Assembly: GCA_963704885.1 (NCBI GenBank)
Contig: CAVPIB010000016.1
Span: 1 to 44,171, forward strand
DNA length: 44,171 bases
Source: an uncultured Actinomycetes bacterium
GTDB lineage: Bacteria > Actinomycetota > UBA4738 > HRBIN12
Direction: 5' to 3'
A program made the position numbers and the translations under genes. The notes beneath the pieces were generated by a model. It was not told the origin of the DNA. It saw only the letters and a program-made list of their open reading frames with translations, and made no database searches. Numbering within the stretch: the stretch's first letter is position 1; each line of letters begins with the position of its first letter. Shown here piece after piece: positions 10,992 through 38,006 of this stretch.

Positions 10992-10994
10992 CTC

Positions 10995-11782: not shown

Positions 11783-13183
11783 TCAGGGGCACCCGCTGCC
11801 GACGCAAGCCCGGTCCATGGCGAGTCGACCCGAGAGGCGAGCCACGTCGGGGTCGTTGCCCGGCCTCCCGTCGTGCAGGAGGTTCCGGAGCTCGGCCGGG
11901 TCCCTCACGAGGTTGTAATACTCACGGAACGTCACTGACCCGTCGTCGCCGTACCACTCGATGTATTGAAAGCGCGTTCGGCGGACAGAGCCCCAACCCG
12001 GGATCGTGGGCGAATCGGCGCTCCTCCAATACTCCAAGAGCTGCCGATGCCTGGAGGTCGTTGTTAGCAGCGACCGGCCATCAAGCGGGTAGCGAAGCGG
12101 GGGGACCAGGGCGGCCGCATCGAGGATCGTCGGGAGGATGTCGACGTTCGCAGCCAGCCTATCTTCGGTCACTCCTTCATCGACGTGTTCGGGCCATCTC
12201 ATGAGGAACGGCACACCGACTGACTCGACGTAGGGGAACCGCTTCTGGTCTCCGATGCGATGCTCACCCCACAGGTAGCCGTTGTCTGACGTGAAGATCG
12301 CCAGCGTGTCGGATGTCTCTCCCGTCGCGTCGAGCTCGTCGAAAATCCGCTGCACCATGTCGTCGACCGACATCAGGGTCCTAAGCTGTTCGGCCCGAAG
12401 TCGGTTCGCCTGACCTCGCGAGAACGTCCGCCACTGCACCCAAGGCGGCTTGTCGCGGACGTTTCGCTCCTTGAAGCCAGGTCCCGGCCTCCAAGGAGGC
12501 ACGGAGGTGTCGAGATATGGCGCGTCCGATGTGAAGGGAGAGTGCGGCGCCTGCGGGGCCACGTAGAGGAACCACGGCGTCTCGTCGGACGATTCGAACG
12601 TGTGCAACATGTCCACGGAACGGTCGGCCAGGATGTTCGAGGAGTACCCCGTGATCCGCGTGACAGAGCCATCGACGTTGAACACCGGATCCACATACCC
12701 TCCGCCGAAGATCGCCCATCGGTCGAAGTTCGGCGGGTCCTGGCCAACCGGCCAAGTGGTGAAGAACTTCCCGGCGATCCCGGTCTGGTATCCGGCCTCG
12801 TGCAGGTACGCCTGGATCGTCGCCCGCTGGTCGAACGCCTGCACGGCGTCGTGGTCCGTATTCGTGTGAACACCCGTGTTGTGTGCGTAACGCCCGCTGA
12901 AGATCGAAGACCGCGACGGGCAGCAGAGCGGCGTTGTCACCATGAAGTTCGGGTAGTTCGTTCCTTGGTCTTCGAACAGCTCGCGCGTCTTCGGCATGAC
13001 CGTGAGGGTGTCGGCAGCCGCCCGCTGATCGTCGGTGACGATCAGAAGGATGTTCGGCCCAGAAGGAGCGGAGGGTGGGGCGTCGCCAGTCGCGAACACG
13101 TGGCCCAAGGCCGGCGCCAACAACGCGCCTGATGCGAGGATTGGGACGAGGCGGCGGCGGGAGGAGCGTGGATCACGCCTCAC
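11783..13183 (-). CDS. Secreted formylglycine-dependent (S1) sulfatase, N-acetylglucosamine-6-sulfatase-like
   Basis: PNILLIVTDDQ, CCPSRSSIFSG (CxPxR), FTSDNGYLWGEH, DPAELRNL; N-terminal RRR plus hydrophobic signal. Confidence 0.92.
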   Translation of the reverse strand: MRRDPRSSRRRLVPILASGALLAPALGHVFATGDAPPSAPSGPNILLIVTDDQRAAADTLTVMPKTRELFEDQGTNYPNFMVTTPLCCPSRSSIFSGRYAHNTGVHTNTDHDAVQAFDQRATIQAYLHEAGYQTGIAGKFFTTWPVGQDPPNFDRWAIFGGGYVDPVFNVDGSVTRITGYSSNILADRSVDMLHTFESSDETPWFLYVAPQAPHSPFTSDAPYLDTSVPPWRPGPGFKERNVRDKPPWVQWRTFSRGQANRLRAEQLRTLMSVDDMVQRIFDELDATGETSDTLAIFTSDNGYLWGEHRIGDQKRFPYVESVGVPFLMRWPEHVDEGVTEDRLAANVDILPTILDAAALVPPLRYPLDGRSLLTTTSRHRQLLEYWRSADSPTIPGWGSVRRTRFQYIEWYGDDGSVTFREYYNLVRDPAELRNLLHDGRPGNDPDVARLSGRLAMDRACVGSGCP

Positions 13184-13358
13184 AGATAGTCCTTCTCAAG
13201 GTCTGCGTTCGAGGCCTTCATTCAACCAGCTCAGCACCCGTTCGTGGATGGTGTCACCCGCTCCGAGGCCCTCGGTGAGGAACTCGTGGCCCTCCCGGCG
13301 ACCTCCGGCTCACCACAGCAGGCCAGGTGGTGTCCCCCGAACCCCCCGACCGGGGGAC

Positions 13359-13386
13359 TAAAGAGCCGATACGCCAGGGTCGATAA
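13359..13386 (+). promoter_or_regulatory. sigma28/WhiG-like promoter
   Basis: TAAA-N16-GTCGATAA against consensus TAAA-N15/16-GCCGATAA, placed about 30 nt before the riboswitch. Confidence 0.55.
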
Positions 13387-13411
13387 CCACCGAGACAAGG
13401 ATACCCAGACA

Positions 13412-13505
13412 GGGATACCGATAGGCAATCTGCGAACGGGCGAACCCGTCGGGAGGCGGGGGCGCAAAGCTCCAGACCCAGACCGGGTGGCTGAGCTGCC
13501 GAACA
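13412..13505 (+). ncRNA. c-di-GMP-I (GEMM) riboswitch aptamer, variant
   Basis: GGCAA...GGGA...GGCGCAAAGCTC...GAGCTGCCGAA with stems CTGC/GCGG, AGCTC/GAGCT, CAG/CTG and ACCC/GGGT, in the 5' UTR of a secreted protein. Recognised by eye, not by covariance model. Confidence 0.8.
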
Positions 13506-13522
13506 GAGAGCGGGTCATCGCA

Positions 13523-13551
13523 CCCCCGTTCCGCGGATGCCCGGAAGGGGG
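13523..13551 (+). promoter_or_regulatory. RBS-sequestering hairpin (candidate riboswitch expression platform)
   Basis: CCCCC-G-TTCCG pairs with CGGAA-GGGGG, the purine tract 7 nt before ATG 13559. Confidence 0.55.
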
Positions 13552-13558
13552 GAACACG

Positions 13559-15364
13559 ATGGCATATGGTGACGGAGGTCGTTCTTGGACCTACACCGTC
13601 CGCGAGCACCGAGTCAGTGTCTCGCTCGTGGGTTTGGCTGCCATCCTCATGCTTCTCGCGACGTTGCTGCCTCGGGGGACGGCTTCGGCTGCCGCAAGCG
13701 GTCCACCTGCTGTGCTATTCCCCGCGAACGGAGCCTACTTCGGATCTCGGGTAGCCCCCAGAGCGGGTGAGTCACAGGCCGACGCGATCCTCCGTATCGA
13801 AAGCCAGATCGGACGTCGGTTCGCGATCGACCATGAGTACTACGACTGGAATAGCTCGTTCCCGACTCAGGAACAGACGTGGACAGTGAGTCAGGGCAGG
13901 ATCCCGTTCCTCAACTGGAAGGCCGGGAGCAGCTGGAGCGCGATCGCGAATGGCTCCCAAGACGCCACTATCATCGCCCGAGCCGAGGCGATAAAGAGCT
14001 TCGGTTACCCCATGTACCTGGCCTTCCACCACGAACCAGAGGACGATCTCGCTTCGTTCGGATCCCCAACGGACTACGCCGCCGCATCTCGTCGTATCGT
14101 CGAAGTTTTCCGCGCTCGCGGCGTATCGAACGTCGCGTTCGTGTGGACGATGATGTCCTGGACGTTCAACTCACGGTCCGGCCGAGACCCTTCGGCGTAC
14201 TACCCAGGAGACGGATATGTGGACGCCGTCGGAAGCGACGGTTACAACTGGTACCCGGGTCGCGCCGGCGACAAGTGGAGATCCTTCCAGGAGATCTACC
14301 AGCCAACCAACGACTTCGCGGTTGCGCACAACAAGCCGTGGATGGCGGTCGAATACGGAGTGATGGAGGATCCAGAGGTGTCAGGGCGAAAGGCCCAGTG
14401 GTTCCTCGACGCGCTCCCCGCAGCCAAGGGCTGGCCCAACCTGAAGGCGTTGGTGTACTTCGACATGACCAAGCTCTATCCATGGGATACGGATAGCTCC
14501 GCCTCGTCCATGAGCGCATACCGGCAGATCAGCAGGGATCCCTATCTGAACCCGGGTGGGGGCGCCGTCCCCGCTCCATCTCCGTCTCCGGCACCATCGC
14601 CGTCTCCGTCCCCGTCTCCGGCACCATCGCCGTCTCCGGCACCATCGCCGTCTCCGGCACCATCGCCGTCCCCGTCCCCGTCCCCGTCTCCGTCTCCGTC
14701 TCCGATGGCACCTGGCACCCTGGCGAACACGCTCAACGGTGGCGTCCTCGGCTCGACTTTGGTCGGAGCCAGCACAGGTGGGGGAAATGGCGTTCCGTTC
14801 GACACGGTCGTGGCTAGCGGTAACGCCCAGCTCACGTATGACAACACCCATACCCGCGGCGTCGGCCTTTCAGCTCGGCACACCGTCGGCTCACGAGGCA
14901 ACTCCTACTACGAGTGGAACAATTCGCTGGGATCGCCCTCGACATGGTACGGCCGCGTGTATCTCCATCTCGACCGTGCCCCTTCGGGCGACATCCGGCT
15001 CATCAGAGTGGAACGCAACGGGAATCTCTCTGCGGTGATCGAAGTCACCCGACGAGGCACCGTGAGGGTCAGAGATGGGGCGAACAAGATCATCGCGTCG
15101 TCCACCCAACCGGTCGTCATCGGCGCATGGGTTCGGATCGAATGGATGGTCGACCATGCGACCGGGAGGGTGGCGGTCCGCTTGTTCAACAGCCCGAACC
15201 TCACGACGCCCACCGAGACGCTGTTGACCGCAGCAGGGCAAGCCATCGGCGCGAGCGCCGACGAGGTGCAGATCGGCCGCTCGGGTTCGCAGGCCTTCTC
15301 GGAGGTCTTCTGGACGGACGACCCCGCCCTCAGCACTTCGGGCTACGTTGGACCGGTCGCCTAA
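13559..15364 (+). CDS. Secreted GH26-like glycoside hydrolase with Pro/Ser linker and C-terminal beta-sandwich domain
   Basis: Signal ending ASA-A; FHHEPED acid/base, YYPGDGYVDAVGSDGYNW, AVEYG nucleophile. Confidence 0.82.
   Translation: MAYGDGGRSWTYTVREHRVSVSLVGLAAILMLLATLLPRGTASAAASGPPAVLFPANGAYFGSRVAPRAGESQADAILRIESQIGRRFAIDHEYYDWNSSFPTQEQTWTVSQGRIPFLNWKAGSSWSAIANGSQDATIIARAEAIKSFGYPMYLAFHHEPEDDLASFGSPTDYAAASRRIVEVFRARGVSNVAFVWTMMSWTFNSRSGRDPSAYYPGDGYVDAVGSDGYNWYPGRAGDKWRSFQEIYQPTNDFAVAHNKPWMAVEYGVMEDPEVSGRKAQWFLDALPAAKGWPNLKALVYFDMTKLYPWDTDSSASSMSAYRQISRDPYLNPGGGAVPAPSPSPAPSPSPSPSPAPSPSPAPSPSPAPSPSPSPSPSPSPSPMAPGTLANTLNGGVLGSTLVGASTGGGNGVPFDTVVASGNAQLTYDNTHTRGVGLSARHTVGSRGNSYYEWNNSLGSPSTWYGRVYLHLDRAPSGDIRLIRVERNGNLSAVIEVTRRGTVRVRDGANKIIASSTQPVVIGAWVRIEWMVDHATGRVAVRLFNSPNLTTPTETLLTAAGQAIGASADEVQIGRSGSQAFSEVFWTDDPALSTSGYVGPVA
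14571..14704 (+). repeat. Coding tandem repeat (PSPAPS/PS linker)
   Basis: Repeated 18-nt unit CCGTCTCCGGCACCATCG plus CCGTCT/CCGTCC hexamers. Confidence 0.9.
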
Positions 15365-15389
15365 GGCAGCGCAGCACTCGACCGACGCG

Positions 15390-15420
15390 GAGAGAGCCCC
15401 GACCATGTCGGGGCTCTCTC
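15390..15420 (+). terminator. Terminator-like hairpin
   Basis: 14-bp perfect stem GAGAGAGCCCCGAC-CAT-GTCGGGGCTCTCTC after stop 15364. Confidence 0.8.
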
Positions 15421-15430
15421 ATGTGAGAGG

Positions 15431-15459
15431 TTGCCACCCTCCACCCGCCTCGTTATCAT
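15431..15459 (+). promoter_or_regulatory. Housekeeping sigma70-type promoter
   Basis: TTGCCA-N17-TATCAT immediately after the terminator. Confidence 0.65.
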
Positions 15460-15593
15460 GAGCGCTTCGACACACACCCTTCTCCGCTGATCGAAGGGAT
15501 TCAGGGATGTGTGCGTTCAGGGTCTGGCAACTTCCCCCGCTCGGCGCCCGCGTGTCGACGGCCCGTCCCGTTTTGTTCGAATGATCGAACGGT

Positions 15594-15607
15594 AGGGAGC
15601 GCTCCGA
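15594..15607. promoter_or_regulatory. LacI-family (CebR/CelR-like) operator candidate
   Basis: AGGGAGCGCTCCGA matches TGGGAGCGCTCCCA at 12/14, with a perfect GGAGCGCTCC core. Confidence 0.4.
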
Positions 15608-15695
15608 ACGGTCGTCGTCCGTTCGATGGCGAACCCGTGATCGGCGTCGGATCGCGGCCGTCCAAACCGCCCGACCCGAGCAGGGATGGAGGTTC

Positions 15696-17414
15696 ATGCT
15701 GACACGCGACCGGAATCTTCCACACGTTTCGGGACTTAGACGAGGCCGATGGGTGACCATAACGTTGGCCGTCGCTCTCTTCTCATCGCTCCTCGCAGGC
15801 CCGCTCGCAGAGTCAGCCGCAGCCGCCTACCCGTCGAAACTGCTTCCCTCTTCGGGCCTCTACTTCGGATCGAGGGTGGGCCCGCGGGGCAATGAGACGA
15901 CGAAGGAGGCGCTCCAACGCGTTGAGTCCCAGATCGGTCGGAAGTTCGCCATCGACCACCAGTACTACAAGTGGAACGCGAAGATCCCGACTGCACATCA
16001 GAGTTGGGATGTAGACACCGGGCGTATCCCCTTCATCAACTGGAACGCGGGGAACACGGGCGGGTCACGAACCAGATGGAGCGCGATCGCGAACGGTTCG
16101 CAAGACGCGTGGATCCGCGAACGGGCAGATGCATTCATCGACTTCGGCGCACCGATCTACCTCGCCTTCCACCATGAACCCGAGAACGACCTCTCGAGCT
16201 TCGGCACACCGGCCGACTATGCGGCGGCGTCCCGTCGCATCGTGACGGTGTTCCGCGACCGAGGCGTAACCAACGTCGCCTTCGTGTGGACCATGATGGG
16301 TTGGACGTTCAATCCGCGCTCCGGCAGAGATGCTTTGGCCTACTACCCTGGTGACGCTTACGTCGACTTCATCGGCAGCGATGGATATAACTGGTACCCA
16401 GACCGCCCCGGCGACAAGTGGAACTCCTTCCAGACCATCTTCGACCCAACGAATTCATTCGCCGTGGCCCACGGCAAACCTTGGATGGCGGTCGAGTATG
16501 GGGTGCTGGAAGATCCGCAAGTGACGGGCAGGAAAGGTTCCTGGCTCCGAGACGCGCTCGCCACGGCGAAGCTCTGGCCGTCCCTGAAGGCGATGCTGTA
16601 CTTCGACATGTTCAAGGTTTATGAGTGGGACACGGATACCTCTTCGTCTTCGATGACCGCGTACCGGTCGATCGCCAACGACGTCTACGCGAATCCCGGA
16701 TCCGCCGGCACAGGTGGCGGCGGTGGCGGCGGTGGCGGGGGTGGCGGCGGTGGCGGCGGTGGCGGCGGCGGCGGCGGCGGCGGCGCCACGCTGACGAATA
16801 GCCTCGACGTAGGGCCGGCACGCGCCGACATCGTCGCGGGACAGAGCGTCTCCGCCGGAACCGCATTCAATGACGTCGGTGTGACCAACGGCGCCTCCGT
16901 GACCTACGACGCCACGCATCGGCTCGGCACGTACTCCGCGAAACACGTGCTGTTACCGAAGAGCGACTCGTACTACGCATGGACCGGTACAAGGAACGTG
17001 TGGTATGGCCATGTCTATCTTTGGATGGGGTCCCTGCCGTCCGGCGATCTTCGGCTAGTCCGTGGAACCTCGAACGGGTCGCTTCGGTGCGCGATAGACC
17101 TCCTGTCGACCGGCACCTTCCGGGTGGTGGATCAGTCGAACCGTACGATCCTCCGGACCTCGGTCCGTATCGAGACCGGCCGGTGGATCCGCATCGAGTG
17201 GAAGGTCGACCATACGCGCGGTGTGGTTGAGGTCCGGCTCTTCAACTCATCGACCGGCACGTCGGCCTCCGAGGTCGGCACCTCGGGGTCCGGAAGCTCC
17301 ATCGGGACCAGCGCGAACGAGTTCCAGTTCGGCAGGTCCGGCAGCCAGTCGTTCGCCGTCACGTTCTGGACCGATAGTCCGGCCCTCTCCTCCTCTGGCT
17401 ACCCGGCTTTGTGA
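15696..17414 (+). CDS. Secreted GH26-like glycoside hydrolase (paralog of 13559-15364) with poly-Gly linker
   Basis: FHHEPEN, YYPGDAYVDFIGSDGYNW, AVEYG; SD GGAGG; same C-terminal domain type. Confidence 0.82.
   Translation: MLTRDRNLPHVSGLRRGRWVTITLAVALFSSLLAGPLAESAAAAYPSKLLPSSGLYFGSRVGPRGNETTKEALQRVESQIGRKFAIDHQYYKWNAKIPTAHQSWDVDTGRIPFINWNAGNTGGSRTRWSAIANGSQDAWIRERADAFIDFGAPIYLAFHHEPENDLSSFGTPADYAAASRRIVTVFRDRGVTNVAFVWTMMGWTFNPRSGRDALAYYPGDAYVDFIGSDGYNWYPDRPGDKWNSFQTIFDPTNSFAVAHGKPWMAVEYGVLEDPQVTGRKGSWLRDALATAKLWPSLKAMLYFDMFKVYEWDTDTSSSSMTAYRSIANDVYANPGSAGTGGGGGGGGGGGGGGGGGGGGGGGGATLTNSLDVGPARADIVAGQSVSAGTAFNDVGVTNGASVTYDATHRLGTYSAKHVLLPKSDSYYAWTGTRNVWYGHVYLWMGSLPSGDLRLVRGTSNGSLRCAIDLLSTGTFRVVDQSNRTILRTSVRIETGRWIRIEWKVDHTRGVVEVRLFNSSTGTSASEVGTSGSGSSIGTSANEFQFGRSGSQSFAVTFWTDSPALSSSGYPAL
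16713..16784 (+). repeat. GGN trinucleotide run encoding 24 Gly
   Basis: 72 nt of GGC/GGT/GGG codons. Confidence 0.9.
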
Positions 17415-17416
17415 GC

Positions 17417-17467
17417 GTCACCGCACCGTCGACCGCCTCAGGCCGGGCTGTCGACGGTGACGGTCGA
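17417..17467. terminator. Hairpin between convergent genes
   Basis: CACCGTCGAC (17424-17433) pairs with GTCGACGGTG (17450-17459), with flanking extension. Confidence 0.6.
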
Positions 17468-17468
17468 C

Positions 17469-19326
17469 CTAACCAGGGGTCAGATCTAGGATCATGTCGT
17501 CGAAGTTGACCGCGATGGTTCGAGCATCAGGCGTGCCGATCGTCACACGACCCACCGGGACCGTGCCCGTGTTCGCCGTCCACGGTCCTAGGATCAAGCC
17601 GCCGTCCCGATAGAGCGTCCATGAGCCGCTCTCGCCGACCGTTCCACAGAGCTCGATCGTCGTCCACGTTCCCGTTTGCAGGGTGACGCCCGTCGAGACC
17701 TGAACGCCGGCGACGTCTGATCGGACGGACAGGACACGACCAGATGTGATGAGCGTCCGGATGATCGGAGCGTCGGCCGCCGTTCGAAGACGCAGTAGGC
17801 TGGCGCCGCCGATCGTCGACGTGAGGTTGACTCGCTGAGACGCACAGATCGACGCATAGTCGTTTCCCAGGAGTTTCGATGCCCACGCCCGGGAGGCGCT
17901 CGTCTCGGCCCGCACCGAGGGAACGGCAGGAGACCCGGATGCCGGGTCGATCGTGAGACCCGAAACGCTCGTCCAGTTCGAGAATCCATCGTCGAAGCCG
18001 TCGGCGAAGATCGACGTCTGTGCTTCCACGATGACGGGATCGGATGCCTGACTGCGGGCGCTCGTGTTCGGCCCGTCGCTCGCGGCCACCTCGTACACGT
18101 GGCCCGTCCCGCCCGCGAGGCCAGAGTCGGTGAACGAGACGGTGCCCGTTGAAGCGCTCGCCACGCTCCCCACCGGAGTCAGCCCTCCGTCTCGGTAGAT
18201 CCGGTATGTGAGCGTCGTCGCGAGGTCATCGGTCGAGGCCGACCAGGTCAGACTGACCGTCCCAGGTGCGTCGCTCAGTCCGGTCGGCTGGCCGGGGATC
18301 GACGGCGGGGTCGTGTCGGTCGGGCCGCCGTCGAACCGTCCGTAGAAGGGATCGCTTCCCATCGCCGCGAGTGCACCTGCCGAGCTGACGCTCGAGTTGA
18401 TCCAGAAGTTGCAGGTGGGCTTCTGGCTTCTGTCGTAGTAGAGCAAGGTCGTGAACTGTTCCCATCCAGGCTGCTGGAAGACGGCTTGAGCTTCGTTGAT
18501 CCAGTTGGCCTTCCGGCCCGGGATGAGGGGATCCTCATGGGACGCCCACTCCATGATGATGAGCGACTTGTCAGGATGGGCGAGGGCCCCAATCCCTCAG
18601 ATGAGCGGCGATCCACTCGAGCGTACGCCACGGGTTGTTGACGCCGGGCCGGCAGTTGTACCAGTTGTAGGCATCCTCCCCGACCGCGTCGACATAGGCA
18701 TCGCCTGGGTACCAGAGGTCCGCCGCCCGGCCGTCGGTCACCCAGAACGCGTACGAGGTCATCACAAAGACGTAGGTGGCGTTCGTCACGCCTTGATCTC
18801 GGAAGACCGAGATCACCTTCCTCCACGCATCGATGAAGTCCGTCGCGGTGCCGTTAGCATCGCTGGCCGCAGCCTCGGGCTCGTGGTTGAAGGTGAAGTA
18901 CAGTGGCGCGCCGTAGGCCTTGAGGCTGTCGGCCCAACCCACGATCTCGTTGTGGATCGTCGAACCGGGCTGGGCGTTGGCGATGCTCCGCCAGAGGATG
19001 ACGCTGCCGTTCGCACGCTTTGCCCTTACCGACAGGAACTCGGCGTGTCCGGTATCGCGTAGCCAGATGTCGTAGGAGCTCGGGAACGGCTCATCCCAAA
19101 CATCGAACACGCGAACCCCTGCCAGCGGGCGTCCCAACTGCGACTCGAGCGCCAGAACGGCCGCTTGCCGATCCTGACTGGCTCCGTCTGGGTACGCGCC
19201 GAAGAGGATCCTCGGTGAGGTCGTATCGGCGGTGGCCGTGTGCGAACCTGCCGCGACGGCCGTCGATGCGACGAGGAGACTCACGATCAGCAACACGATC
19301 CTCGATCGTCGTCGCGTCATCTTCAT
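17469..19326 (-). pseudogene. Secreted GH26-like + FN3 + conserved C-terminal domain protein, split by a +1 frameshift near 18585
   Basis: The N part has a signal peptide, FNHEPE and WYPGDAYVD..GEDAYNW; deleting one base in GGCCCTC gives WGLAHPDKSLIIMEW and joins ORF 17469-18554. Could be a sequencing error. Confidence 0.8.
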
Positions 19327-19453
19327 CGGGCCCCTGAGACAACGCAGCAACGCCAACGGGACAGCCGTCGTCGGACCGGGTCGCGTCTTCGAACCCAAAG
19401 CCCCTCCCCCAAAGGCCGAAACACCTAACCATGTCACGGACGGCCTCCGCTGG

Positions 19454-23200: not shown

Positions 23201-23417
23201 TCAGCCATCTCCGGCATGACCGGAACGGGAGCGCCACCGATTCGCGCCATGACGCTGTGCAGCCGGATCGGCAGCAGGTCGCGGACCAAGAGCTGGACGG
23301 AGGTGATCGAGATCATTCCGTCACCGGTCCCCGCACCCAGCACCCAACTGAAGTGTCGAGATCCGGCCGGGCGGCTCCGGACCCGCGGACCCAGCCCCGT
23401 GCCTCGGCAGGTGGCAT
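23197..23417 (-). CDS. Possible small hypothetical protein (~73 aa, apparently frameshifted)
   Basis: ATG 23417 overlaps the GT2 stop and TGA 23197 overlaps the next start, but they are in different frames (221 nt). Confidence 0.35.
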
Positions 23418-29423: not shown

Positions 29424-32400
29424 CTGCGACATCGTCGGCGGATCGTCGGGGCGCTGATGCTCGCCGCCGCGCTAGCGACATCGGTTGTCCAGGCGCTCGC
29501 GCCGGCAGCGTCGGCCGTGCAGACGACCCACGCCGCCGCCGTGTCAGAGAACCCCGCCAACTGGACGCCGAACGTCATGAACGGCAGGGTTTTCGCGATA
29601 CTCCAGATGGGCACCAAGGTCATCGTCGGCGGATCGTTCACCCAGGTTCAGGCATCTGGCTCGAGTCAAACGTTGACGCGCAACTACCTGTTCGCGTTCG
29701 ACATGAACACCGGTACGATCGATCAGAATTTCGTTCCGCAGCTCAACAACCAAGTGGAGGCGCTCGCCCCCGGGCCCGACGGCCAGTCCATCTTCGTCGG
29801 TGGTTCCTTCAGCTCTGTCAACGGGAACACCAACTACAGGCGTCTGGTGCGTCTCACGCTCGCAGACGGGCAGCTCGTGACGGGCTTCCGGCCGAACCCC
29901 GCAACGACGGTGCGCGCTCTTGTTCTGCGAGGGACGTGGCTCTACGTATCCGGCACGTTCCAGCAGATCGGAGGCGTGAGCCGGTCGGGACTCGCCCGAG
30001 TGGATCCGGTCACTGGTGCCATCGACGCGGCGTTCGACGTTCCGTTCACGGAGCCACAGAACGGTGGCGACCTGAACGTCCGCAAGATCGACGTGACCCC
30101 TGATGGCTCGCAGCTGGTTGCGATCGGCAACTTCAGCCGGGTGGGCGGACTGCCGCGCAACCAGGCGGCGATCGTCGACCTGACGGCAAACCCCCCGTCG
30201 GTCTCGTCCTGGCAGACCGATCAGTTCGCCTTCTTCATCCCCAACACGACGATCACGTGGTGCTCTGCCGCCTTCTGGACGTATATGCACGACGTCGACA
30301 TCTCCCCGGACGGAACGTACTTCGTGATCGTCACGACCGGCGCGTACCGGGCGAACCGGCTCTGCGACACCGTGACTCGATGGGAGCTATCGGCCACCGG
30401 GCCCGGACAGCTTCCGACCTGGGTCGACTGGGCGGGAGGAGACACGTTCTGGGGCGTCGCAACCACCGGTGCGGCCGTCTATGCGGGCGGACACCCTCGG
30501 TGGATGAACAACCCATATCGCAGCAACGTCGCCGGGCCGGGCGCGGTCCCCCGTGAGGGGATCGCCAGCCTCGACCCGATCAACGGCCTGCCGTTCACAT
30601 GGAATCCCGGTCGCGCACGAGGGGTCGGGACGTTCGACATCGTCGGAACGCCTGACGGCCTTTTCGTAGGGAGCGACACGGACCGGTTCGGAGGCGAGAC
30701 CCGTCGGAAGATCGCCTTCCTTCCCTTGACGGGCGGAACCCTGGTCCCGCCCAACATCCCCTACGGCCTACCGAACAACCTCTACAGGATCGATGAAGCC
30801 ACCTCGTCGTTGACGCGCCGGAGCTTCGACGGGACGTCCTTCGGCCCGACCACCACCCTGAGCACGGGCGTGAACTGGGCGACGACCCGCGGAGCCTTCG
30901 CCCTGAACGGAAGGATTTACACGGGGCAGAGCAACGGAACGATGACGTTCCGCACCTTCAACGGCACGACGGTGGGCGGTTCCAACACCATCAACCTGTA
31001 CGGACTCGAGGTCGCGCCGGGCGGGAACAACTTCCTGATACCGGGGACGAATACGCAGGTCCCGGGATTCAACGCCCACCTCGCCTCGATGACCGGCATG
31101 TTCTTCGAGAACGGGCGGATCTACTACACGGTCTCCGGGAATCCGCGCCTCTATTACCGCTACTTCACGCCGGAGAGCCTCGTCGTGGGTGCGAACCTGT
31201 TCGTCGGCAGCAACACGCCCACGATCGACTGGGCCAACGTCCGCGGGTTGACGATGGCGAGTGGCGGTTTGTACTACTCCCTGGCGAACGGGAACCTCTT
31301 CCGAGTCGGGTGGGTGGGTGGAGCACCGTCGGGAACCCCCGTGCAGATCGGCGGCCCGGGCGTGGACGGCGTCGACTGGGCATCTCGGGGACTATTCGCT
31401 TTCGCTGGATCCACCGACACCACCGGTCCCTCCACACCGGGCACGCCGAGCGGGTCAAGCAGCGGGTTCGACTCCATCGACCTCACCTGGACCGCCTCGT
31501 CGGACCCGAGCCAACCCATCACCTATCAGATCTACCGCGACGGAGATCCGACGCCGGTCGGCTCGATCCAGAGCTCATCCACGACGACCGTCGCCTTCAC
31601 CGATACCGGCCTGATCGCGGGCAGCACCCACACCTACACGGTCGACGCCATGGATCCGGTCGGCAACATGTCGGCGATGAGCAATCCCTCCGGTCCGATC
31701 ACCGTCCTGATGGCCGAGTCGGACCCGCCCACCCAGCCGGGGACGCCGACAGGTTCTAGCTCGACCAGTTCCACGATCTCACTCAACTGGACCCCGTCCA
31801 CCGACGCCTCACTCCCGATCACGTACCGCGTGTATCGCGATGGCGACCCACTGTCCGTTGGCTCGACGACTTCCACATCCTTCGTGGACTCCGGGTTGGC
31901 CGCGGGCAGCACCCACACCTACGTCGTCGAACCGGTCGATGCCCTTTCAAACGTCGGCCCACCAAGCGACGCGTCTGTCCCGATCACCGTGATGTCCGCG
32001 ATCTTCGCGGATGACTTCACCGGAGCATCGTTCGCCAACTGGACCGGTGTCACCAACATGAGCATCGACGGCGGCACCGGCGCTCCGTCGCCGCCGAGCG
32101 CTCTCGGAGCCCCCTCCAACCAAGCCGCATTCGCGTTCCGCACGCTGGAAACCAGTTACGCCACCATGTGTGCGAGCCTGCGGGTCGACGTCACCGGCCA
32201 GAGCGGCAGCTTCATCCTCCTCCGATTGCGAACCACCACCAACGGGCCGATCGTGCGGGTCTTCTTAGGTGGCGACGGAGCGCTCAACGTTCGCTCCGAC
32301 GTATCCGGCACGTCCTTCCCATCAGGCGTAGCCCTCGGAAACGGTTGGCATCTCATCGAGCTGTGCGGCACCGTTGGAACGGCGACCTCGTGGTCGCTCT

Positions 32401-32543
32401 ACCGTGACGGGGCACTCATCGTGGATACCGGCGGCGTGAACTCAGGGGCGACGCCGATCGGGCGAATCCAGATCGGCGACAACGCCGCCAAGTCCTGGAC
32501 CGCTAACTTCGACGACGTCGTGCTGGACGACTTGCCTGATTGA
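29424..32543 (+). CDS. Large secreted beta-propeller-type protein with two FN3 domains and the conserved C-terminal domain
   Basis: Signal ending AASA-V, repeated VGGSF/SGTF/IGNF blade-like motifs, two P.TPG.P...LTW...YRDG FN3 units. CTG 29424 is proposed; ATG 29457 is the alternative. Confidence 0.82.
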   Translation: MRHRRRIVGALMLAAALATSVVQALAPAASAVQTTHAAAVSENPANWTPNVMNGRVFAILQMGTKVIVGGSFTQVQASGSSQTLTRNYLFAFDMNTGTIDQNFVPQLNNQVEALAPGPDGQSIFVGGSFSSVNGNTNYRRLVRLTLADGQLVTGFRPNPATTVRALVLRGTWLYVSGTFQQIGGVSRSGLARVDPVTGAIDAAFDVPFTEPQNGGDLNVRKIDVTPDGSQLVAIGNFSRVGGLPRNQAAIVDLTANPPSVSSWQTDQFAFFIPNTTITWCSAAFWTYMHDVDISPDGTYFVIVTTGAYRANRLCDTVTRWELSATGPGQLPTWVDWAGGDTFWGVATTGAAVYAGGHPRWMNNPYRSNVAGPGAVPREGIASLDPINGLPFTWNPGRARGVGTFDIVGTPDGLFVGSDTDRFGGETRRKIAFLPLTGGTLVPPNIPYGLPNNLYRIDEATSSLTRRSFDGTSFGPTTTLSTGVNWATTRGAFALNGRIYTGQSNGTMTFRTFNGTTVGGSNTINLYGLEVAPGGNNFLIPGTNTQVPGFNAHLASMTGMFFENGRIYYTVSGNPRLYYRYFTPESLVVGANLFVGSNTPTIDWANVRGLTMASGGLYYSLANGNLFRVGWVGGAPSGTPVQIGGPGVDGVDWASRGLFAFAGSTDTTGPSTPGTPSGSSSGFDSIDLTWTASSDPSQPITYQIYRDGDPTPVGSIQSSSTTTVAFTDTGLIAGSTHTYTVDAMDPVGNMSAMSNPSGPITVLMAESDPPTQPGTPTGSSSTSSTISLNWTPSTDASLPITYRVYRDGDPLSVGSTTSTSFVDSGLAAGSTHTYVVEPVDALSNVGPPSDASVPITVMSAIFADDFTGASFANWTGVTNMSIDGGTGAPSPPSALGAPSNQAAFAFRTLETSYATMCASLRVDVTGQSGSFILLRLRTTTNGPIVRVFLGGDGALNVRSDVSGTSFPSGVALGNGWHLIELCGTVGTATSWSLYRDGALIVDTGGVNSGATPIGRIQIGDNAAKSWTANFDDVVLDDLPD

Positions 32544-32746
32544 TCGGGCGATGAGCCTTGGCCGCCATAAGCCTTAGGTCTTTGGACCCAAGCCGGCTCA
32601 CGGAAGTCCTCCCCCTGGACCGCCCGAGCTAGACCTCCGGCCGTAGCCAGTCCCCCGCGGCGGCGGTATCGTCTTGGGGACCCCGAACGGACATGGCGAG
32701 CCATCTCGACGGACGGCTGACGTCACCGACCCAGCAGGAGGAACCG

Positions 32747-35700
32747 ATGGCGAAGCTTCCCTCCGTCCGACGGCTCGCGTCGCTGTCCACCGCACTACTC
32801 ATCGTGCTGTCGGTCCTCGTCTTCGTTCCAACTCCGGCAGTAGCCGTACAGGTCTCTCAGTCAGTCGTCGTCAACCCCAACCCTGCCGACTGGACCCCGA
32901 TGATCGAGGACGGGCAGGTCAACGCGATCCTGCAGGTCGGCACCAAGGTGATCGTCGGAGGGACGTTCACGCAGGTGCGTCGTGCGAACACGTCGGCCTT
33001 CCTAACCAGGAACTACCTCTTCGCCTTCGACATGAATACAGGAGTCATCGACCCCAACTTCGTGCCGATCCTTAATCGATCGGTCGAGGCCTTGGCCCTG
33101 GGCCCGGATGGCTCGTCGGTGTTCGTCGGAGGGGATTTCAGTACGGTCAACGGTCTGAGTTACAAGAAGGTAGTGCGGCTTAACATCGCTGACGGCAGCA
33201 TCGTGACGGCGTTCAAAGCCAATGCGAGCGCGCTGGTTCAAGACCTCGTGGCCAGGGGGGATTGGCTGTACGTATCGGGCAAGTTCACCACGATCAAGAG
33301 CACGGCACGTTCCGGCGTCGCCCGGCTTGACCCGAACACCGGCAACGTGGACGCGGATTTCGACCTTCCTTTCACGAACCCCCTTCGCGGGACCCTCGGA
33401 GTCCCCGAGATCGACGTGTCTCCCGACGGATCGAACCTGGTTGCGATCGGCAGCTTCAGCAAGGTGGCGGGGCTGGACCGGGTACAGATCGCGATGCTGG
33501 ACGTGGGAGTGACTCCCGCCGTGGTCTCTTCCTGGCAGACCTCGGACTTCCCGGTGTTCGTACAGAACTCGACGACCACATGGTGCTCCGGGAGCTTCCG
33601 AACGTATATGCGCGACGTGGACATCGCGCCAGACGGTTCGTACTTCGTCGTCGCGACCACCGGCGCGTTCAGGGCGAACCGACTATGTGACACGGCGACC
33701 CGCTGGGAGCTCGGAACCACGCGGTCCCAACCAACATCCGACGTGGGCGGACTGGAGCGGCGGCGATACCTCCTGGAGCATCAGCGCCACCGGCACCGCG
33801 ATCTACGTCGGCGGCCACTTCCGCTGGTGGAACAACCCCTACCGAGGGGACACCGCCGGACCGGGTGCTGTCGCCCGGGAGGGCATCGTCGCCCTGGACC
33901 CGATCAACGGGCTCCCGTTCAGCTGGAACCCGAGCCACGAACGCGGCGTGGGGATCTTCACGATGCCGGCCACGGAGGAGGGATTGTGGGCGGGCAGTGA
34001 CACCGACCATGCCGGCGGCGAGTACCACCAGAAGATCGCCTTCTTCCCGACCGCTGGCGGTGTCACACCACCGCCCGTCGTCACCTACTCGCTACCGAAC
34101 GATCTCTACAACATGAACCTGGCAACGGGGTCGCTCGATCGCCGCTCCTACGATCTGACCACGTTCGGCACCACTTCCTCCGTGCCGACCGGCGTGGACT
34201 GGCGGAATGCGCGGGGCGCATTCATGGTGAGCGGCAGGCTCTACACAGGGTGGAGCGATGCCACGTTCAGGGTCCAGGACTTCGACGGCACGACGATGGG
34301 CGCGCCGGCCACGATCGGTCTGAACGGGCTGGAGGTACAGCCGCCCAGCGGCTTCAACATCCCGGGCACGACCACTCGCGTCCCGGCGTTCACAACCGAC
34401 CTTCAGAGCATGACAGGGATGTTCTATTCGAACGGCCGGATCTACTACACGGTGAGTCGCCCCGGGACCACCACGACGAACATCGCCAACAACAACAAGC
34501 TCTATTACAGGTACTTCACGCCGGAGAGCCAGGTCGTAGGGGCGAACCTCTTCGTCGCCAGCAGCTATCCGGCCGACACGACGATCCAGTGGGCTAACGT
34601 CGCCGGGATGACGATGGCGAACGGCAAGTTGATCTACGCGACCACAGATAACCGCCTGTGGCGCGTGGACTGGTCGGGAACCGCCCCCACTGGGACTCCG
34701 ACCCAGATCGGTGGCCCCGGCATCGATGCGGCGAACTGGGCCTCGCGCGGTCTGTTCGTCTTCAACCAAACGGTTGACACGTTCGCGCCAACTACACCGG
34801 GCGCACCGAGCGGGTCAAGTTCGACGTTCGACTCGATCGACCTCACCTGGCAGGCTTCGGTCGACAACATCTCCCCGACCCTGACCTACCAGGTGTACAG
34901 GGATGGGATTCAGATCGGTCAGGTGATCAGCGCCTCGAAGGGCGCCGTAACCTACACGGACGCAGGGCTGCCGGCTGGCAGCACCCACACTTACAGGGTG
35001 GACGCCGTCGACGGGGCGAACAATTCGAGTCCGCTCAGCAACGTATCCAGCCCGATCACGGTACTTGCGCCAGACACCACGCCGCCGAGTGATCCCGGCT
35101 TACCGGCTGGCGTGAGCACGTCGACCTCGACGATCAGTCTGACCTGGGCCATCTCGGTAGACAACGAGAGCACCAACCTCACGTACCGCATCTACCGAGA
35201 TGGCGTCGACCCCGGGAACTTCATAGCCCAGTTCCAGAGCTCGTCAGATGGAACCGTGTCATTCGTCGACACCGGTCTCTGGCCGGGCACCGCTCACACC
35301 TACTCCGTTCAGGCGCTCGACGAAGCTGGGAACGAAAGCAACAAGGTGACATCGGACTCCATATCCGTGATGGCGGCGGTCTTCGCGGACAACTTCACGG
35401 GCGGCCTCGCAGGGTGGTCGACCGTAACCAGGATCTCGCTGGACGTCGCGAACGGGTCGTTCTCAGCGCCGAGCGCCCAGGGAACGCCCACGGCTCAGAG
35501 CGCCTACGCTTACGCCGACCTGCCAACAACACTCACGACGATCTGCGTGAGCGCCAACGTGAACGTCACGAACAGGACAACCTCTCTGGACCTGATCCGG
35601 CTCCGAACGGCGGCGAATGGGGCCGTGGCGAAGGTATACCTGAACTCTCAGGGCCAACTGGTCGTTCGATCCGACTTCGCCGGCACGCAGCAGTCGTCCA

Positions 35701-35921
35701 GCGTGACGCTGTCGACGGACTGGAACCGGATAGAGCTCTGTGGGAGTGACGTGGCCAGCTCGGGACTCTGGGACCTGTATCTGAACGGCTCTACGATCGT
35801 GAGCGGTTGGGCTGCGGATACGGGCACGGAAGCCGTTGGGCGCATCCAGATAGGCGATACAGCAGCCAAGACATGGACAGCGAATTGGGACGACGTGGTG
35901 GTTGACCAGGCGTCGGGCTGA
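32747..35921 (+). pseudogene. Tandem paralog of 29424-32543, split by a +1 frameshift near 33721
   Basis: SD AGGAGG before ATG 32747; RWELGT|GPNQHPTWADWSGGD aligns with paralog RWELSATGPGQLPTWVDWAGGD after removing one base. Could be a sequencing error. Confidence 0.85.
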
Positions 35922-35968
35922 GGCCGACCGTAGACACTCGGCCGGTCAACCGGAGGAGGGACGGCATC

Positions 35969-37969
35969 ATGAGGGGCGGATCATCGCGCCACCCGATCGC
36001 CGTGGCAGTGGTCGCTATCGTGGTCGCAGGGCTAGCCCCGGCGCCGGCCCAAGCCGTCGGTCCAGGCACGCCCTTCACTTGGGGCGGCAACACATACGGC
36101 CAACTCGGTGACGGGACCACCACGGGTCATGCCTTCCCAGCGCCCATCCTGTCCCTTGCTGACGCCATCGACATCGGCGGCGGCCGGGAGCACGCGGTCG
36201 CCCTTCGTCCAAACGGGCGCGTCTGGACTTGGGGACGCAACAACTTCGGCCAGATCGGCGATGGAACCACCCAGGCTCGTTCGTCGCCGACACTCGTGCC
36301 GGGTATCACTGGTGCCATCGACGTCGCCACGGGCCACTACCACACGCTGGCGCTCCGCTCCGACGGAACGGCCTGGGGGTGGGGATACAACGCCCTCGGT
36401 CAACTGGGTGATGGAACCACGACGAACCGCCGGAGCCCTGTGCGGATGGGCACGCTGACCGGCGTAGCAGACATCGCTGGCGGCCGCAGCATGAGCTACG
36501 CGCTTCTCGACGACGGCACCCTATGGGCCTGCGGATCGAACGCCGACGGCCAACTTGGCGACGGGACCCGTACCACGCGGACGACTCCGGTCCGCGTAGG
36601 GATTCTGGCGAACGTGGTCTCGTTCGCAGGAGGACGCGATCACGGCTTAGCGGTGCTTGGGGACGGCTCGGTCTGGGCTTGGGGCGACAACGCCTACGGT
36701 CAGATCGGGGACGGGACCTTGACCGACAGGATCTCGCCGGTCCAGGTCGGCGGGATCGACGAAGCCGTAGCGGTCATAGCCGGGGCGCATCATTCGACAG
36801 CGCTGCTCTCAGACGGCAGCGTCCTGGCGTGGGGCAGGAACAACCTTGGCCAGCTGGGCGACGGGTCAACCATAGCTCGGCGGACACCCGCTCCCGTCTT
36901 GGGCCTCAGCGACGTCGTGGCCATCGGAGCAGGCCGGGACCACACCCTGACCGTCCTCGAGGATGGAACGGCTCGTGCCTGGGGATTGAACGACTTCGGA
37001 CAGCTGGGGGATGGCACCACCACGAATCGGACCCAGCCGGTCGTCGTTTCGGGACTGTCGGGGGCGGTGGAGGTGCACGGGGGACGCGACTACTCGATCG
37101 CGATGGTCGTCGACGCTGACCCCGACGTAGCGCCTCCGACGGCGCCAGGCCAGCCGAACGGACAGAGCATCACGCCCGGCGCGATCGACCTGAGTTGGCT
37201 AGCCGCTGCCGATGACGTGAGCACGGCGCTCACCTATCGGGTGTTCCGTGATGCTTCTCTGGCAGGTACGACCATGAGCTCTTCGCCCATCGTCAGCTTC
37301 ACGGACGTCGGTCTACAAGGGGGCGACTCGCACGTATACACCGTTACGGCTTTGGATGCGGCAATGAATGAGGGTCCCGCCAGCTCGCCGTCCGATCCGA
37401 TCACTGTGGCGAGCGGGCCATCCGTGATCTTCTTCGACGACTTCTCGACAGGCACACTCGCGAACTGGACAGCGATCACTCGGTTCGCGATCGACGGGAC
37501 CGCGGGGAGCCCCTCACCGCCGAGTGCGCGGGTATCGGTCTCGGCGCAGTCGGCAACGATGGCTCGCGATCTAGGTGGGAGCTATCCGAGCGTCTGCGTC
37601 AGCGCCCGTGTGAACGTCTCAGCGCGGACGGGCTCGATAGCCCTTTGGCGACTCAGAACGGCAGCCGACGGCCCGATCGCGCGGACGTTGGTCAACTCCT
37701 CTGGCATCCTTACGATCCGCTCGGACGTGTCGGGCGTAACTCTGACCTCGGGCGTGGCCCTGGGGACCGGTTGGCACACGCTCGAGATGTGCGGGACCGT
37801 GGGCACCGCCGGCACCTGGGACCTCTACCGTGACGGGATCCGGATCGTGAACACCTGGACGGCGAACACGGGAACGATTCCCATCGGCATGTTCGAGCTC
37901 GGGAACTCCAACGCGGGCACTTGGACGGCCAACTTCGACGACATCCAGGTAGACCAGTTCCCCGGTTGA
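35969..37969 (+). CDS. Secreted RCC1/BLIP-II-like seven-repeat propeller + FN3 + conserved C-terminal domain
   Basis: Seven GxNxxGQ(L/I)GDG repeats at an exact 150-nt period (36081-36981); signal ending AQA; SD GGAGG. Confidence 0.9.
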   Translation: MRGGSSRHPIAVAVVAIVVAGLAPAPAQAVGPGTPFTWGGNTYGQLGDGTTTGHAFPAPILSLADAIDIGGGREHAVALRPNGRVWTWGRNNFGQIGDGTTQARSSPTLVPGITGAIDVATGHYHTLALRSDGTAWGWGYNALGQLGDGTTTNRRSPVRMGTLTGVADIAGGRSMSYALLDDGTLWACGSNADGQLGDGTRTTRTTPVRVGILANVVSFAGGRDHGLAVLGDGSVWAWGDNAYGQIGDGTLTDRISPVQVGGIDEAVAVIAGAHHSTALLSDGSVLAWGRNNLGQLGDGSTIARRTPAPVLGLSDVVAIGAGRDHTLTVLEDGTARAWGLNDFGQLGDGTTTNRTQPVVVSGLSGAVEVHGGRDYSIAMVVDADPDVAPPTAPGQPNGQSITPGAIDLSWLAAADDVSTALTYRVFRDASLAGTTMSSSPIVSFTDVGLQGGDSHVYTVTALDAAMNEGPASSPSDPITVASGPSVIFFDDFSTGTLANWTAITRFAIDGTAGSPSPPSARVSVSAQSATMARDLGGSYPSVCVSARVNVSARTGSIALWRLRTAADGPIARTLVNSSGILTIRSDVSGVTLTSGVALGTGWHTLEMCGTVGTAGTWDLYRDGIRIVNTWTANTGTIPIGMFELGNSNAGTWTANFDDIQVDQFPG

Positions 37970-37990: not shown

Positions 37991-38006
37991 CCGTGAACGG
38001 CGAGAT

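Follow-up and report, generated by a model that had tools for sequence, protein, structure and literature searches.

That animals and algae make sulfated polysaccharides is well established; among bacteria this holds, to our knowledge, for cyanobacteria only. We know of no bacterial sulfated exopolysaccharide (EPS) pathway with chemical proof other than that of synechan, which reportedly has no GH26 enzyme, kinase-like gene or riboswitch and is under two-component/STAND regulation. Among Actinomycetota the closest described system is the wps-1 cluster (wpsA-wpsK, AMIS_7280-7380) of the sporangium-forming Actinoplanes missouriensis (Tezuka & Ohnishi, Appl Environ Microbiol 2026, PMC13390465). 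Its genes encode a GT2 glycosyltransferase, a sulfotransferase, a GT26 glycosyltransferase, a DUF4262 protein, a GH26 protein, a methyltransferase, Wzx, a second sulfotransferase, a kinase-like protein, Wzy and Wzz. The cluster was deleted as a whole and gene by gene, with normal sporangia requiring all genes but wpsD, plus the adjacent sat/adenosine 5'-phosphosulfate (APS)-kinase gene; the authors put forward a sulfated EPS as the product and note that chemical proof has yet to come (PMC13390465). Here we compare with these systems a 26-kb island of an uncultured actinomycete, located on a 44,171-bp contig that was analysed over its whole length (contig C16, hereafter the window) and that belongs to a 3.0-Mb genome in 20 contigs (97% complete, 4.5% contamination).

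The island is a variant of the wps-1 cluster family, because locus L113 of Actinoplanes campanulatus, whose gene content and order are exactly as published for wps-1 with sat/APS-kinase included, matches seven gene families of the window: the sulfotransferases ST1 (45% identity) and ST2 (43%), the GT2 glycosyltransferase (45%), Wzx (36%), the kinase-like protein (33%), Wzc (28%) and GH26 (26-29%). For the same reason an earlier reading of this DNA from its letters (the original prediction), which took the system for undescribed and without a characterised equivalent in Actinomycetota, has been overtaken by the 2026 dissection of wps-1 (PMC13390465). Its view of a Wzx/Wzc-type polysaccharide locus with three sulfotransferase domains is supported, and every element that it had listed in one contiguous block, the cyclic di-GMP (c-di-GMP) riboswitch included, was confirmed in place with Pfam, NCBIfam and Rfam. 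Of the three findings that would have spoken against the original prediction, none was made. We put at roughly 70% the probability that the island encodes a wps-1-type, Wzx/Wzy-dependent pathway for a probably sulfated glycan, with accessory hydrolases and concanavalin A (ConA)-like proteins, and that in this genus c-di-GMP controls one of the hydrolases. Gene identities, synteny and conservation, the limits of the island, the riboswitch with its hairpin and the PAPS genes of the genome are observed directly. We infer that the product of this accessory genomic island is a surface or extracellular heteropolysaccharide, and likewise the substrate of the enzymes, the sulfation of a glycan, the order of the steps, the roles of the secreted proteins and the direction of the switch. 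Genes were called by Pfam and NCBIfam profile scans of the long open reading frames (ORFs) of the window, and the biosynthetic genes are as follows.

19454-21094, reverse strand: Wzx-type flippase (PF01943, 57.7 bits)
21073-21951, reverse strand: sulfotransferase ST1, WpsH counterpart (PF00685, 55 bits; PF13469, 54.6 bits)
21948-23144, reverse strand: kinase-like protein with an APH/choline-kinase-type fold, WpsI counterpart (PF01636, 23.0 bits, just below the cut-off of 23.2)
23417-24472, reverse strand: GT2 glycosyltransferase, WpsA counterpart (PF00535, 71.5 bits)
24373-25329, reverse strand: sulfotransferase ST2, WpsB counterpart (PF13469, 49.2 bits)
25387-27375, forward strand: Wzc with polysaccharide co-polymerase (PCP) domain and tyrosine autokinase (PF02706, 55.9 bits; TIGR01007, 143.2 bits, cut-off 108)
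27372-27845, forward strand: PssD/Cps14F-type (Alg14-like) membrane partner (NF041549, 120.5 bits, cut-off 110)
27788-29290, forward strand: PssE/Cps14G-type (Alg13-like) glycosyltransferase fused to sulfotransferase ST3 in one ORF (PF04101 at residues 33-178, PF13469 at residues 205-435)

Like wps-1, the island combines Wzx, a chain-length protein, GT2, two different sulfotransferase families, a kinase-like protein and GH26; neither has an in-cluster priming transferase, and both depend on genes for 3'-phosphoadenosine 5'-phosphosulfate (PAPS). Unlike wps-1, it has PssD/PssE in place of GT26 and a third sulfotransferase, fused to PssE, and its Wzc is complete with a kinase domain, whereas in L113 Pfam reports nothing beyond a Wzz domain. 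By Pfam it has no in-cluster Wzy, GT26, DUF4262 or methyltransferase and no adjacent sat/cysC; its extras are a sulfatase, two further GH26 genes, three propeller/RCC1 secreted proteins and the c-di-GMP riboswitch. The hosts also differ, a 3-Mb uncultured actinomycete here and a sporangium former there. The methyltransferase gene flanking the island was considered as a WpsF counterpart and set aside, since it has no match to L113 and is retained in contig C18, which has no island. The PssD/PssE pair of Rhizobium and the Cps14F/Cps14G pair of Streptococcus pneumoniae (NF041549, NF041548) are split Alg14/Alg13-like pairs as in the window, but the window PssE carries a sulfotransferase, of which the NCBIfam family description makes no mention. 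With the synechan (xss) locus of Synechocystis sp. PCC 6803 the island shares the pathway logic alone, a Wzx/Wzy-type pathway plus sulfotransferases (PMC8205485), and the two belong to different phyla and envelope types.

In the mechanism that we propose, a priming transferase encoded elsewhere would start a repeat unit linked to undecaprenyl diphosphate, which PssD/PssE and the GT2 enzyme would extend with sugars. The three cytoplasmic PAPS-dependent sulfotransferases, one of them fused to PssE, would sulfate the unit at the inner face of the membrane, and the kinase-like enzyme probably phosphorylates it at the same stage. Wzx would then flip the unit, and Wzc would set the length of the polymer and its export. 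Outside the cell, the secreted GH26 enzymes, with their catalytic glutamates intact, may trim or release the polymer, and the propeller and RCC1 proteins, which have a ConA-like C-terminal domain in common, may bind or act on it. Specific to the genus would be the placing of GH26A translation under a c-di-GMP-I riboswitch that hides the ribosome-binding site and start codon.

The PF00685 and PF13469 domains of ST1, ST2 and ST3 all exceed the Pfam cut-offs. Inspection gave the motif pairs GTQRGGTTS / RDPASRAYS, CQRSGSTL / RDARGVAYS and WGRSGSTL / RDSRGVVHS, which agree with what we take to be the definitions of the 5'-phosphosulfate-binding (5'-PSB) and 3'-phosphate-binding (3'-PB) motifs in the three proteins. 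Against solved structures, ST1 matches heparan sulfate 3-O-sulfotransferases (E ~1e-18; the range, N-sulfotransferases included, is 1e-18 to 1e-13) and the bacterial structure 3rnl (1e-23), and ST2 and ST3 give a single weak match, to the sulfotransferase domain of a polyketide synthase (4gox, E=0.0047). The PssE part of the fusion scores 83 bits, below the cut-off of 120 of its NCBIfam family (NF041548), and the PssE-ST3 fusion was matched over most or all of its length in seven relatives (query start at residues 1 to 95). Since ST3 is fused to the PssE glycosyltransferase, a lipid-linked sugar is indicated as the sulfotransferase substrate in place of a lipid or small molecule; the original prediction had set the latter against its own reading, and both the fusion and the likeness of ST1 to heparan-sulfate 3-O-sulfotransferases speak for the polysaccharide. 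By inspection neither the sulfotransferases nor the kinase has a signal or membrane segment, and because of this, the fusion and the ST1 matches, sulfate and phosphate would be attached to the lipid-linked unit at the cytoplasmic face.

The kinase-like gene overlaps ST1 at the stop and start codons. Nine aligned orthologues all have HGDxxPWN and DWE unchanged, and the catalytic core therefore looks intact; the similarity of the protein to choline kinase 4r77 is weak (E=0.006), and its atlas clusters are unnamed or APH-labelled and of Actinomycetota origin. Wzc shows on inspection a GEGKS Walker A motif and a YGYGYGYGY C-terminal tail.

For PAPS synthesis, a priming transferase and Wzy the original prediction had looked to the rest of the genome. 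The first two are there: ATP sulfurylase (sat, C1:672272-672898, 342.6 bits), adjoined by a PAPS-reductase-family gene, APS kinase (cysC, C1:832630-833085, 209.3 bits), and two Bac_transf genes, one on C4 and one on C6. An intact Wzy is not, as discussed below. Directly upstream of the APS kinase gene lies a gene of the type I phosphodiesterase/nucleotide pyrophosphatase family (PF01663, 147 bits; C1:831222-832619, L150:5222-6619). Contig C6 holds a possible second polysaccharide locus (C6:15987-39437) with Bac_transf at C6:15987-16511, a Wzc-like kinase domain at C6:38583-39437 and, at C6:21295-21708, a partial ST1-like sulfotransferase match (40% over 155 aa). On C4, a fourth ST2/ST3-type sulfotransferase (C4:835532-836455, 40-42% identity) lies outside the island, ~35 kb from the other Bac_transf gene (C4:870115-870678), and the start of the contig (C4:91-3643, L146) is occupied by degraded GH26-like and Wzy-like genes in several frames with stops, which may be what is left of a second wps-like locus or may be poor sequence at a contig end.

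The core of the cluster recurs in relatives, both in 11 regions of the same order and in loci found across the phylum from the kinase, which bears out the predicted co-occurrence of its genes. A search with the PssE-ST3 protein matched 44 of the 61 genomes of the order, counting the genome itself and the unpublished G008 and G049. The 11 relatives' regions, 40 kb each and picked for long contigs with an ST3 match, all contain the kinase, Wzx, ST1 and a gene of ST2 type, and most also encode propeller or RCC1 proteins besides GT2, Wzc, PssD/PssE and GH26. The same E2/lipB or methyltransferase/Trx site is occupied in 6 of the 11 (G004, G005, G006, G010, G017 and G022). A Wzy-like membrane protein of ~470 aa is encoded within the cluster in seven (G005, G010, G017, G026, G036, G054 and G058), the G017 copy with a PF04932 (Wzy_C) match of 36.4 bits, and is absent from the cluster in the window, G004 and G006, the last of which has an intact copy on another contig.

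Across the phylum, a scan seeded with the kinase alignment (A1) gave 80 retained loci, so that the following counts are conditional on the kinase. All 80 come from records titled Actinomycetota or with a lineage within it, many of them metagenome-assembled genomes of an uncultured 'Actinomycetes bacterium'; other record titles are Gaiellales, Microthrixaceae and Acidimicrobiia, and cultured carriers include Actinoplanes, Dactylosporangium, Virgisporangium, Longispora, Catellatospora, Planobispora, Stackebrandtia, Nocardioides, Actinomadura and Micromonospora matsumotoense. Loci L068, L074, L107 and L113 belong to Planobispora rosea JCM 3166, Longispora albida DSM 44784 and Actinoplanes spp. 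Among the 64 loci of at least 19 kb, Wzx is found in 64, a sulfotransferase in 61, Wzc in 59, a Wzy-like protein in 59, GH26 in 50, GT2 in 43, a propeller/fn3/ConA-like protein in 29 and PssD in 24. The kinase gene lies at most 400 bp from ST1 in 48 of the 80 loci. As a marker it occurs in 19 of the 61 relatives (unpublished G008 included) and in 37 of 401 evenly drawn phylum genomes (E<=1e-10; about ten of the 37 are weak). The gene core is thus widespread in actinomycetes, in uncultured soil lineages as well as several cultured genera. No conclusion here depends solely on the four unpublished genomes, which enter just the tallies where they are named.

The extent of the island is given by comparison with two other contigs of the same assembly.

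11631-38006, no strand: the entire strain-variable island (alignment to contigs C18 and C11)

Contig C18 matches the window at 5006-11630 (96.6% nucleotide identity), 38007-39631 (98.7%) and 40208-44171 (99.6%), has no island, and leaves a gap of ~47 bp between lipB and the methyltransferase gene. At the island site, contig C11 carries 5.7 kb of different sequence, which includes genes for a PKD-domain protein and a remnant of propeller/fn3/ConA-like type. The 26-kb block behaves as a single insertion/deletion unit that one strain has, another does not and a third has in reduced form, and its limits match almost exactly the predicted bounds, lipB and a methyltransferase; the methyltransferase itself falls outside, and with the Trx-TPR gene forms a conserved flank, kept in C18. 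This unit and the co-occurrence of the core genes in relatives make the grouping more than a chance neighbourhood. GC content is 63-65% in the island against 67% in the genome, and a mobile-element origin was considered and set aside, as no integrase, transposase or tRNA was found in the Pfam results for the window proteins, no dedicated tRNA scan having been run. Because the cluster occupies the same site in the six relatives named above, the island is old at this site, and the empty site of C18 is most simply seen as a loss. In comparison with window positions 3932-11630 and 38003-44171, one genome bin holds three haplotypes of the site, C16 (26-kb island), C18 (empty) and C11:20546-35575 (5.7 kb), and there is therefore strain heterogeneity inside the bin.

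The remaining genes of the island encode a sulfatase and the proteins that the original prediction counted as six large secreted ones. These are present, but a frameshift breaks GH26C into two ORFs, and another does the same to PropE.

11783-13183, reverse strand: secreted S1-type sulfatase (PF00884, 162.6 bits; SGSH_C, 59.5 bits)
13559-15364, forward strand: GH26A, with signal peptide, GH26 domain, Pro/Ser linker and type-1 C-terminal domain (PF02156, 21.5 bits, cut-off 20.2)
15696-17414, forward strand: GH26B, a paralogue of GH26A with Gly-rich linker and type-1 C-terminal domain (PF02156, 22.9 bits; 46% identity to GH26A in C-terminal alignment A4)
17469-19326, reverse strand: GH26C, with GH26, fn3 and type-2 ConA-like C-terminal domain (PF02156, 25.5 bits; frameshift near 18554-18571)
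29457-32543, forward strand: PropD, with DUF5122 beta-propeller, two fn3 and type-2 ConA-like C-terminal domain (PF17164, PF00041, alignment A3)
32693-35921, forward strand: PropE, a paralogue of PropD (frameshift near 33700-33720; the ORFs 32693-34000 and 33687-35921 overlap in different frames)
35969-37969, forward strand: RCC1-repeat propeller, with fn3 and type-2 ConA-like C-terminal domain (PF25390, 357 bits; PF00415, 266 bits)

On inspection, six of these seven proteins have a clear N-terminal signal-like hydrophobic segment, and the N-terminus of PropD as called is short and less clear. The sulfatase has a CCPSR motif (C-x-P-x-R site, CPSR) and an RRR-containing N-terminal hydrophobic leader. 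Residues 66-323 of GH26A (~260 residues) match PDB entries named 'Endoglucanase H' (2bv9, 2v3g and others; E=1.8e-25), which we take to be CtLic26A, a beta-1,3-1,4-glucanase. Two glutamates of GH26A, in HE and VE/AE motifs, align with chain positions 109 and 222, presumably the acid/base and nucleophile of the Clostridium thermocellum lichenase Lic26A, and HE and xE catalytic motifs also occur in GH26B and GH26C. From the 'Endoglucanase H' module the window proteins differ in their added C-terminal ConA-like domains and in their place inside a biosynthetic cluster. The two ORFs of GH26C (18571-19566 and 17469-18554) are in different frames, the G005 and G017 orthologues are single-frame, and the PropE orthologue of G006 is contiguous. 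Outside the island, the genome has an intact full-length paralogue of GH26A/B (C8:105408-107093, 50-52% identity) and a LamG/fn3 protein with repeated fn3 units and a type-2 ConA-like C-terminal domain (C4:770853-773320).

The type-2 domain (~185 aa) is common to GH26C, PropD, PropE and the RCC1 protein (A3, mean column identity 61%). Modelled from the C-terminus of the RCC1 protein (predicted local distance difference test (pLDDT) 82.6, predicted template modelling score (pTM) 0.81), it is predicted to be a ConA-like jelly roll, with Foldseek matches at template modelling (TM) scores of ~0.6-0.68 to glucuronan and alginate lyases, calreticulin, sialidase lectin domains and carbohydrate-binding modules. 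Because the top matches mix both kinds, they would fit a lyase or a lectin alike. The 'read' function once proposed for these C-terminal domains thus finds weak support, since the ConA-like fold does not tell binding from catalysis. The type-1 domain of GH26A/B gave a poor model (pLDDT 64.5) with TM scores of 0.3-0.48 to ConA-like lectin domains, a ConA-like assignment on which we do not rely for that reason, and by BLASTP it has no similarity to the type-2 domain.

The riboswitch consists of an aptamer and a predicted expression platform.

13429-13503, forward strand: c-di-GMP-I aptamer (RF01051, 52.2 bits, gathering threshold 35, E=1.8e-7; 79.7 bits to the order-specific model R1)
13514-13562, forward strand: expression platform hairpin pairing the Shine-Dalgarno run (~13547-13552) and the start codon (13559), from folding of five genus leaders

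This aptamer is the sole Rfam match in the window and the sole RF01051 match in the genome. It sits 55 nt before the ATG of GH26A, the first downstream ORF, and within the genus an aptamer precedes the GH26A orthologue without exception (the genome itself, G004, G005, G006 and G010). In the order, 28 of the 61 genomes have RF01051, counting the unpublished G059 and G034; model R1 (alignment A5) was made from 28 of the 30 listed aptamers, those of G059 and G034 being left out. A scan of the 80 kinase-centred loci with R1 found a riboswitch in 2, both from the closest relatives, so that the link between riboswitch and cluster is a genus-level novelty. The c-di-GMP link that had been claimed for the whole system thus concerns one GH26 gene in this genus only. 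The aptamer fold is well supported: when the order's 28 aptamers are compared, compensatory changes on both sides occur at 12 of 18 pairs, and 97.5% of cells are paired as against 82.5% in shuffled alignments (0 of 500 shuffles reach the observed value) and 30-46% in slid controls. The aptamer has a short P3 with no more than five variable-loop positions, and binding of c-di-GMP is predicted. GGDEF matches number eight in the genome.

The platform hairpin has a predicted energy of -28 to -31 kcal/mol in all five genus leaders; in each of them a CCUCC/CCCCC run pairs with the G-rich Shine-Dalgarno, and a CAU triplet with the start codon. Both are almost fully paired in four of the five leaders; in G006 the start codon is 26-40% unpaired. 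No T-run or terminator was found in a scan of 13100-17600. Because the hairpin takes in the Shine-Dalgarno and start codon and has no T-run, control is most likely exerted at translation initiation. The element matches its Rfam class over its full length and differs in this platform and in its target, a GH26 gene in an EPS island. As to direction, we lean slightly towards c-di-GMP binding as the 'off' state, which fits a little better because the hairpin coexists with the folded aptamer and is closed in all modelled states. In the minimum-energy folds of G004, G010 and G006, the platform (GGUCUG) pairs with the 5' strand of P3 (CAGACC) in a possible competing helix, which shows one double change in G006; it was kept as a lead and not taken for the switch, since it does not free the Shine-Dalgarno. 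Between GH26A and GH26B, a sigma-70-like promoter match (15431-15459, forward strand, 10/12) is not above chance; if real, it would leave the riboswitch in control of GH26A alone.

Elsewhere in the order, 22 ORFs downstream of the riboswitch were scanned (loci L116-L145). Fourteen encode CAP-domain (PF00188) secreted proteins (one of them from the unpublished G059), for example L121:1644-2108 and L124:977-1438. Others encode an RTX-repeat protein, a Pel9A-like beta-helix, an ice-binding-like protein and four proteins of no family (one from the unpublished G034), and one is a sulfatase of G021 (L141:1594-3003) with 37% identity to the window sulfatase. From these families the riboswitch regulon in the order would thus consist of extracellular proteins. 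In the literature searched, outside which most subscription journals lie, we found no actinomycete reported to have a c-di-GMP riboswitch on a glycosidase gene of such a cluster.

Several results weigh against the wps-1-type pathway as a working producer of sulfated glycan. Chemical evidence of a sulfated polysaccharide is not known for any actinomycete, and for wps-1 itself it is still awaited (PMC13390465). No priming transferase lies within the island, the Bac_transf genes being on C4 and C6, and the kinase-like protein scores marginally below the Pfam cut-off. In all foldings of the five leaders, whether free, with the aptamer enforced or with the 3' strand of P3 blocked, the Shine-Dalgarno/start hairpin stayed closed, so that no modelled state accounts for the switching. 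The sulfatase is absent from the clusters of all 11 relatives and from all 64 full-length loci (1 of all 80), and PF03781, the formylglycine-generating enzyme (FGE), has no match in the genome, the radical-SAM maturase anSME not having been searched for; the write, erase and read module of the original prediction finds weak support. There is no Wzy in the window and no PF04932 match in the genome, and the sole homologue of the relatives' Wzy in the genome (C4:2412-3643) is in six pieces with stops, so that the search for an intact polymerase elsewhere came back empty. With two secreted-protein genes, GH26C and PropE, frameshifted and a co-assembled strain without the island, the locus may be decaying in this strain. 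It is possible, if on the unlikely side, that the island has the identity given here and makes no polymer, being on its way to the deletion seen in C18. The missing Wzy in a 97%-complete genome, two frameshifts neither of which is in a long homopolymer run, the empty and the reduced 5.7-kb haplotypes and the degraded GH26-like and Wzy-like pair at C4:91-3643 would all fit such a course. Yet Wzx, ST1, the kinase, GT2, ST2, Wzc, PssD, PssE-ST3, GH26A/B, PropD and the RCC1 protein are intact long ORFs, and the frameshifts may be assembly indels. The polymerase could sit in unassembled sequence (16,000 bases are N), and an off-cluster polymerase would be normal in this lineage, because the G004 and G006 clusters are also without Wzy and G006 has its intact copy on another contig.

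The nature of the product and the place of the secreted proteins can be read in other ways. The WecG/TagA family builds wall-teichoic-acid linkage units, and the PF04932 domain is also found in PglL-type transferases. The product might then be a wall-linked secondary cell-wall glycopolymer, or a sulfated oligosaccharide moved en bloc onto secreted proteins with Pro/Ser/Thr-rich linkers, the Wzy_C protein serving as O-oligosaccharyltransferase. In favour, a WecG/TagA-family GT26 is part of wps-1 (PMC13390465), the 'Wzy' of the relatives is so named from PF04932 alone (36.4 bits), a domain that O-antigen ligases have as well, the linker of GH26A is a long PSPSP stretch, and secreted-protein and biosynthetic genes run in the same direction. 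We think this unlikely in view of a Wzc with full PCP, tyrosine kinase and Tyr-rich tail, typical of high-molecular-weight export, of GH26 endo-glycanases in 50 of 64 loci, which suggest a polymer substrate, and of a window in which Pfam scans found no LCP ligase. Quite unlikely, in our estimate, is that the cell uses its secreted GH26, propeller and RCC1 proteins to forage on, or adhere to, foreign glycans of plants or fungi and that their genes are no more than neighbours of the biosynthetic ones, with the riboswitch serving nutrient acquisition in place of turnover of the cell's own matrix. It would suit such a role that the nearest solved GH26 is the clostridial 'Endoglucanase H', presumably the lichenase of a plant-biomass degrader, that GH26A/B and ConA-like paralogues lie outside the island and that the riboswitch class precedes assorted secreted proteins in other genera. 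But GH26 is in-cluster in those 50 of 64 loci across distant actinomycete lineages, the secreted-protein and biosynthetic genes were lost together in C18, and in A. missouriensis deletion of wpsE (GH26) disturbs sporangium formation (PMC13390465). Very improbable is a lipid or small molecule, such as a sulfolipid or secondary metabolite, as the sulfotransferase target: the sole structural match of ST2/ST3 is the weak one to the polyketide-synthase domain 4gox, and sulfated glycoside antibiotics exist in actinomycetes (PMC13291958), but ST3 and the PssE glycosyltransferase form one protein, the linkage of ST1 to Wzx and the kinase is tight throughout the phylum, and Pfam finds no polyketide synthase, nonribosomal peptide synthetase or lipid-synthesis genes in the island.

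For the wps-1-type pathway, what is new here is the genus-only riboswitch before GH26A, the PssE-sulfotransferase fusion, the secreted proteins with a common ConA-like C-terminal domain and the presence or absence of the island at strain level. The wps-1 study raised the possibility of a sulfated EPS for one sporangium-forming actinomycete (PMC13390465), and the same core is now seen to be widespread; several cultured genera carry it, and in them its chemistry is accessible now. The fusion points to sulfation on the lipid-linked unit. An island that one strain has and a co-assembled strain lacks is as expected for a surface structure under diversifying selection. A bolder and rather doubtful extension would make the GH26 endo-glycanase a second-messenger-gated step that releases or remodels a sulfated and phosphorylated glycosaminoglycan-like polymer, its lipid-linked unit sulfated by the glycosyltransferase-sulfotransferase fusion and the propeller/RCC1 proteins forming a dedicated matrix-binding or matrix-cutting set. 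In that case the core pathway, found in about a tenth of the sampled Actinomycetota species, would serve the phylum in general as a matrix system, beyond sporangium formers.

In the surroundings of the island, two sets of 2-oxoacid dehydrogenase E1 alpha/beta genes flank it (window positions 7578-10991 and 40227-42315), the left set with E2 and lipB. Further to the left lie genes for the T protein of glycine cleavage (4982-6130) and lipoamide dehydrogenase (5883-7568).

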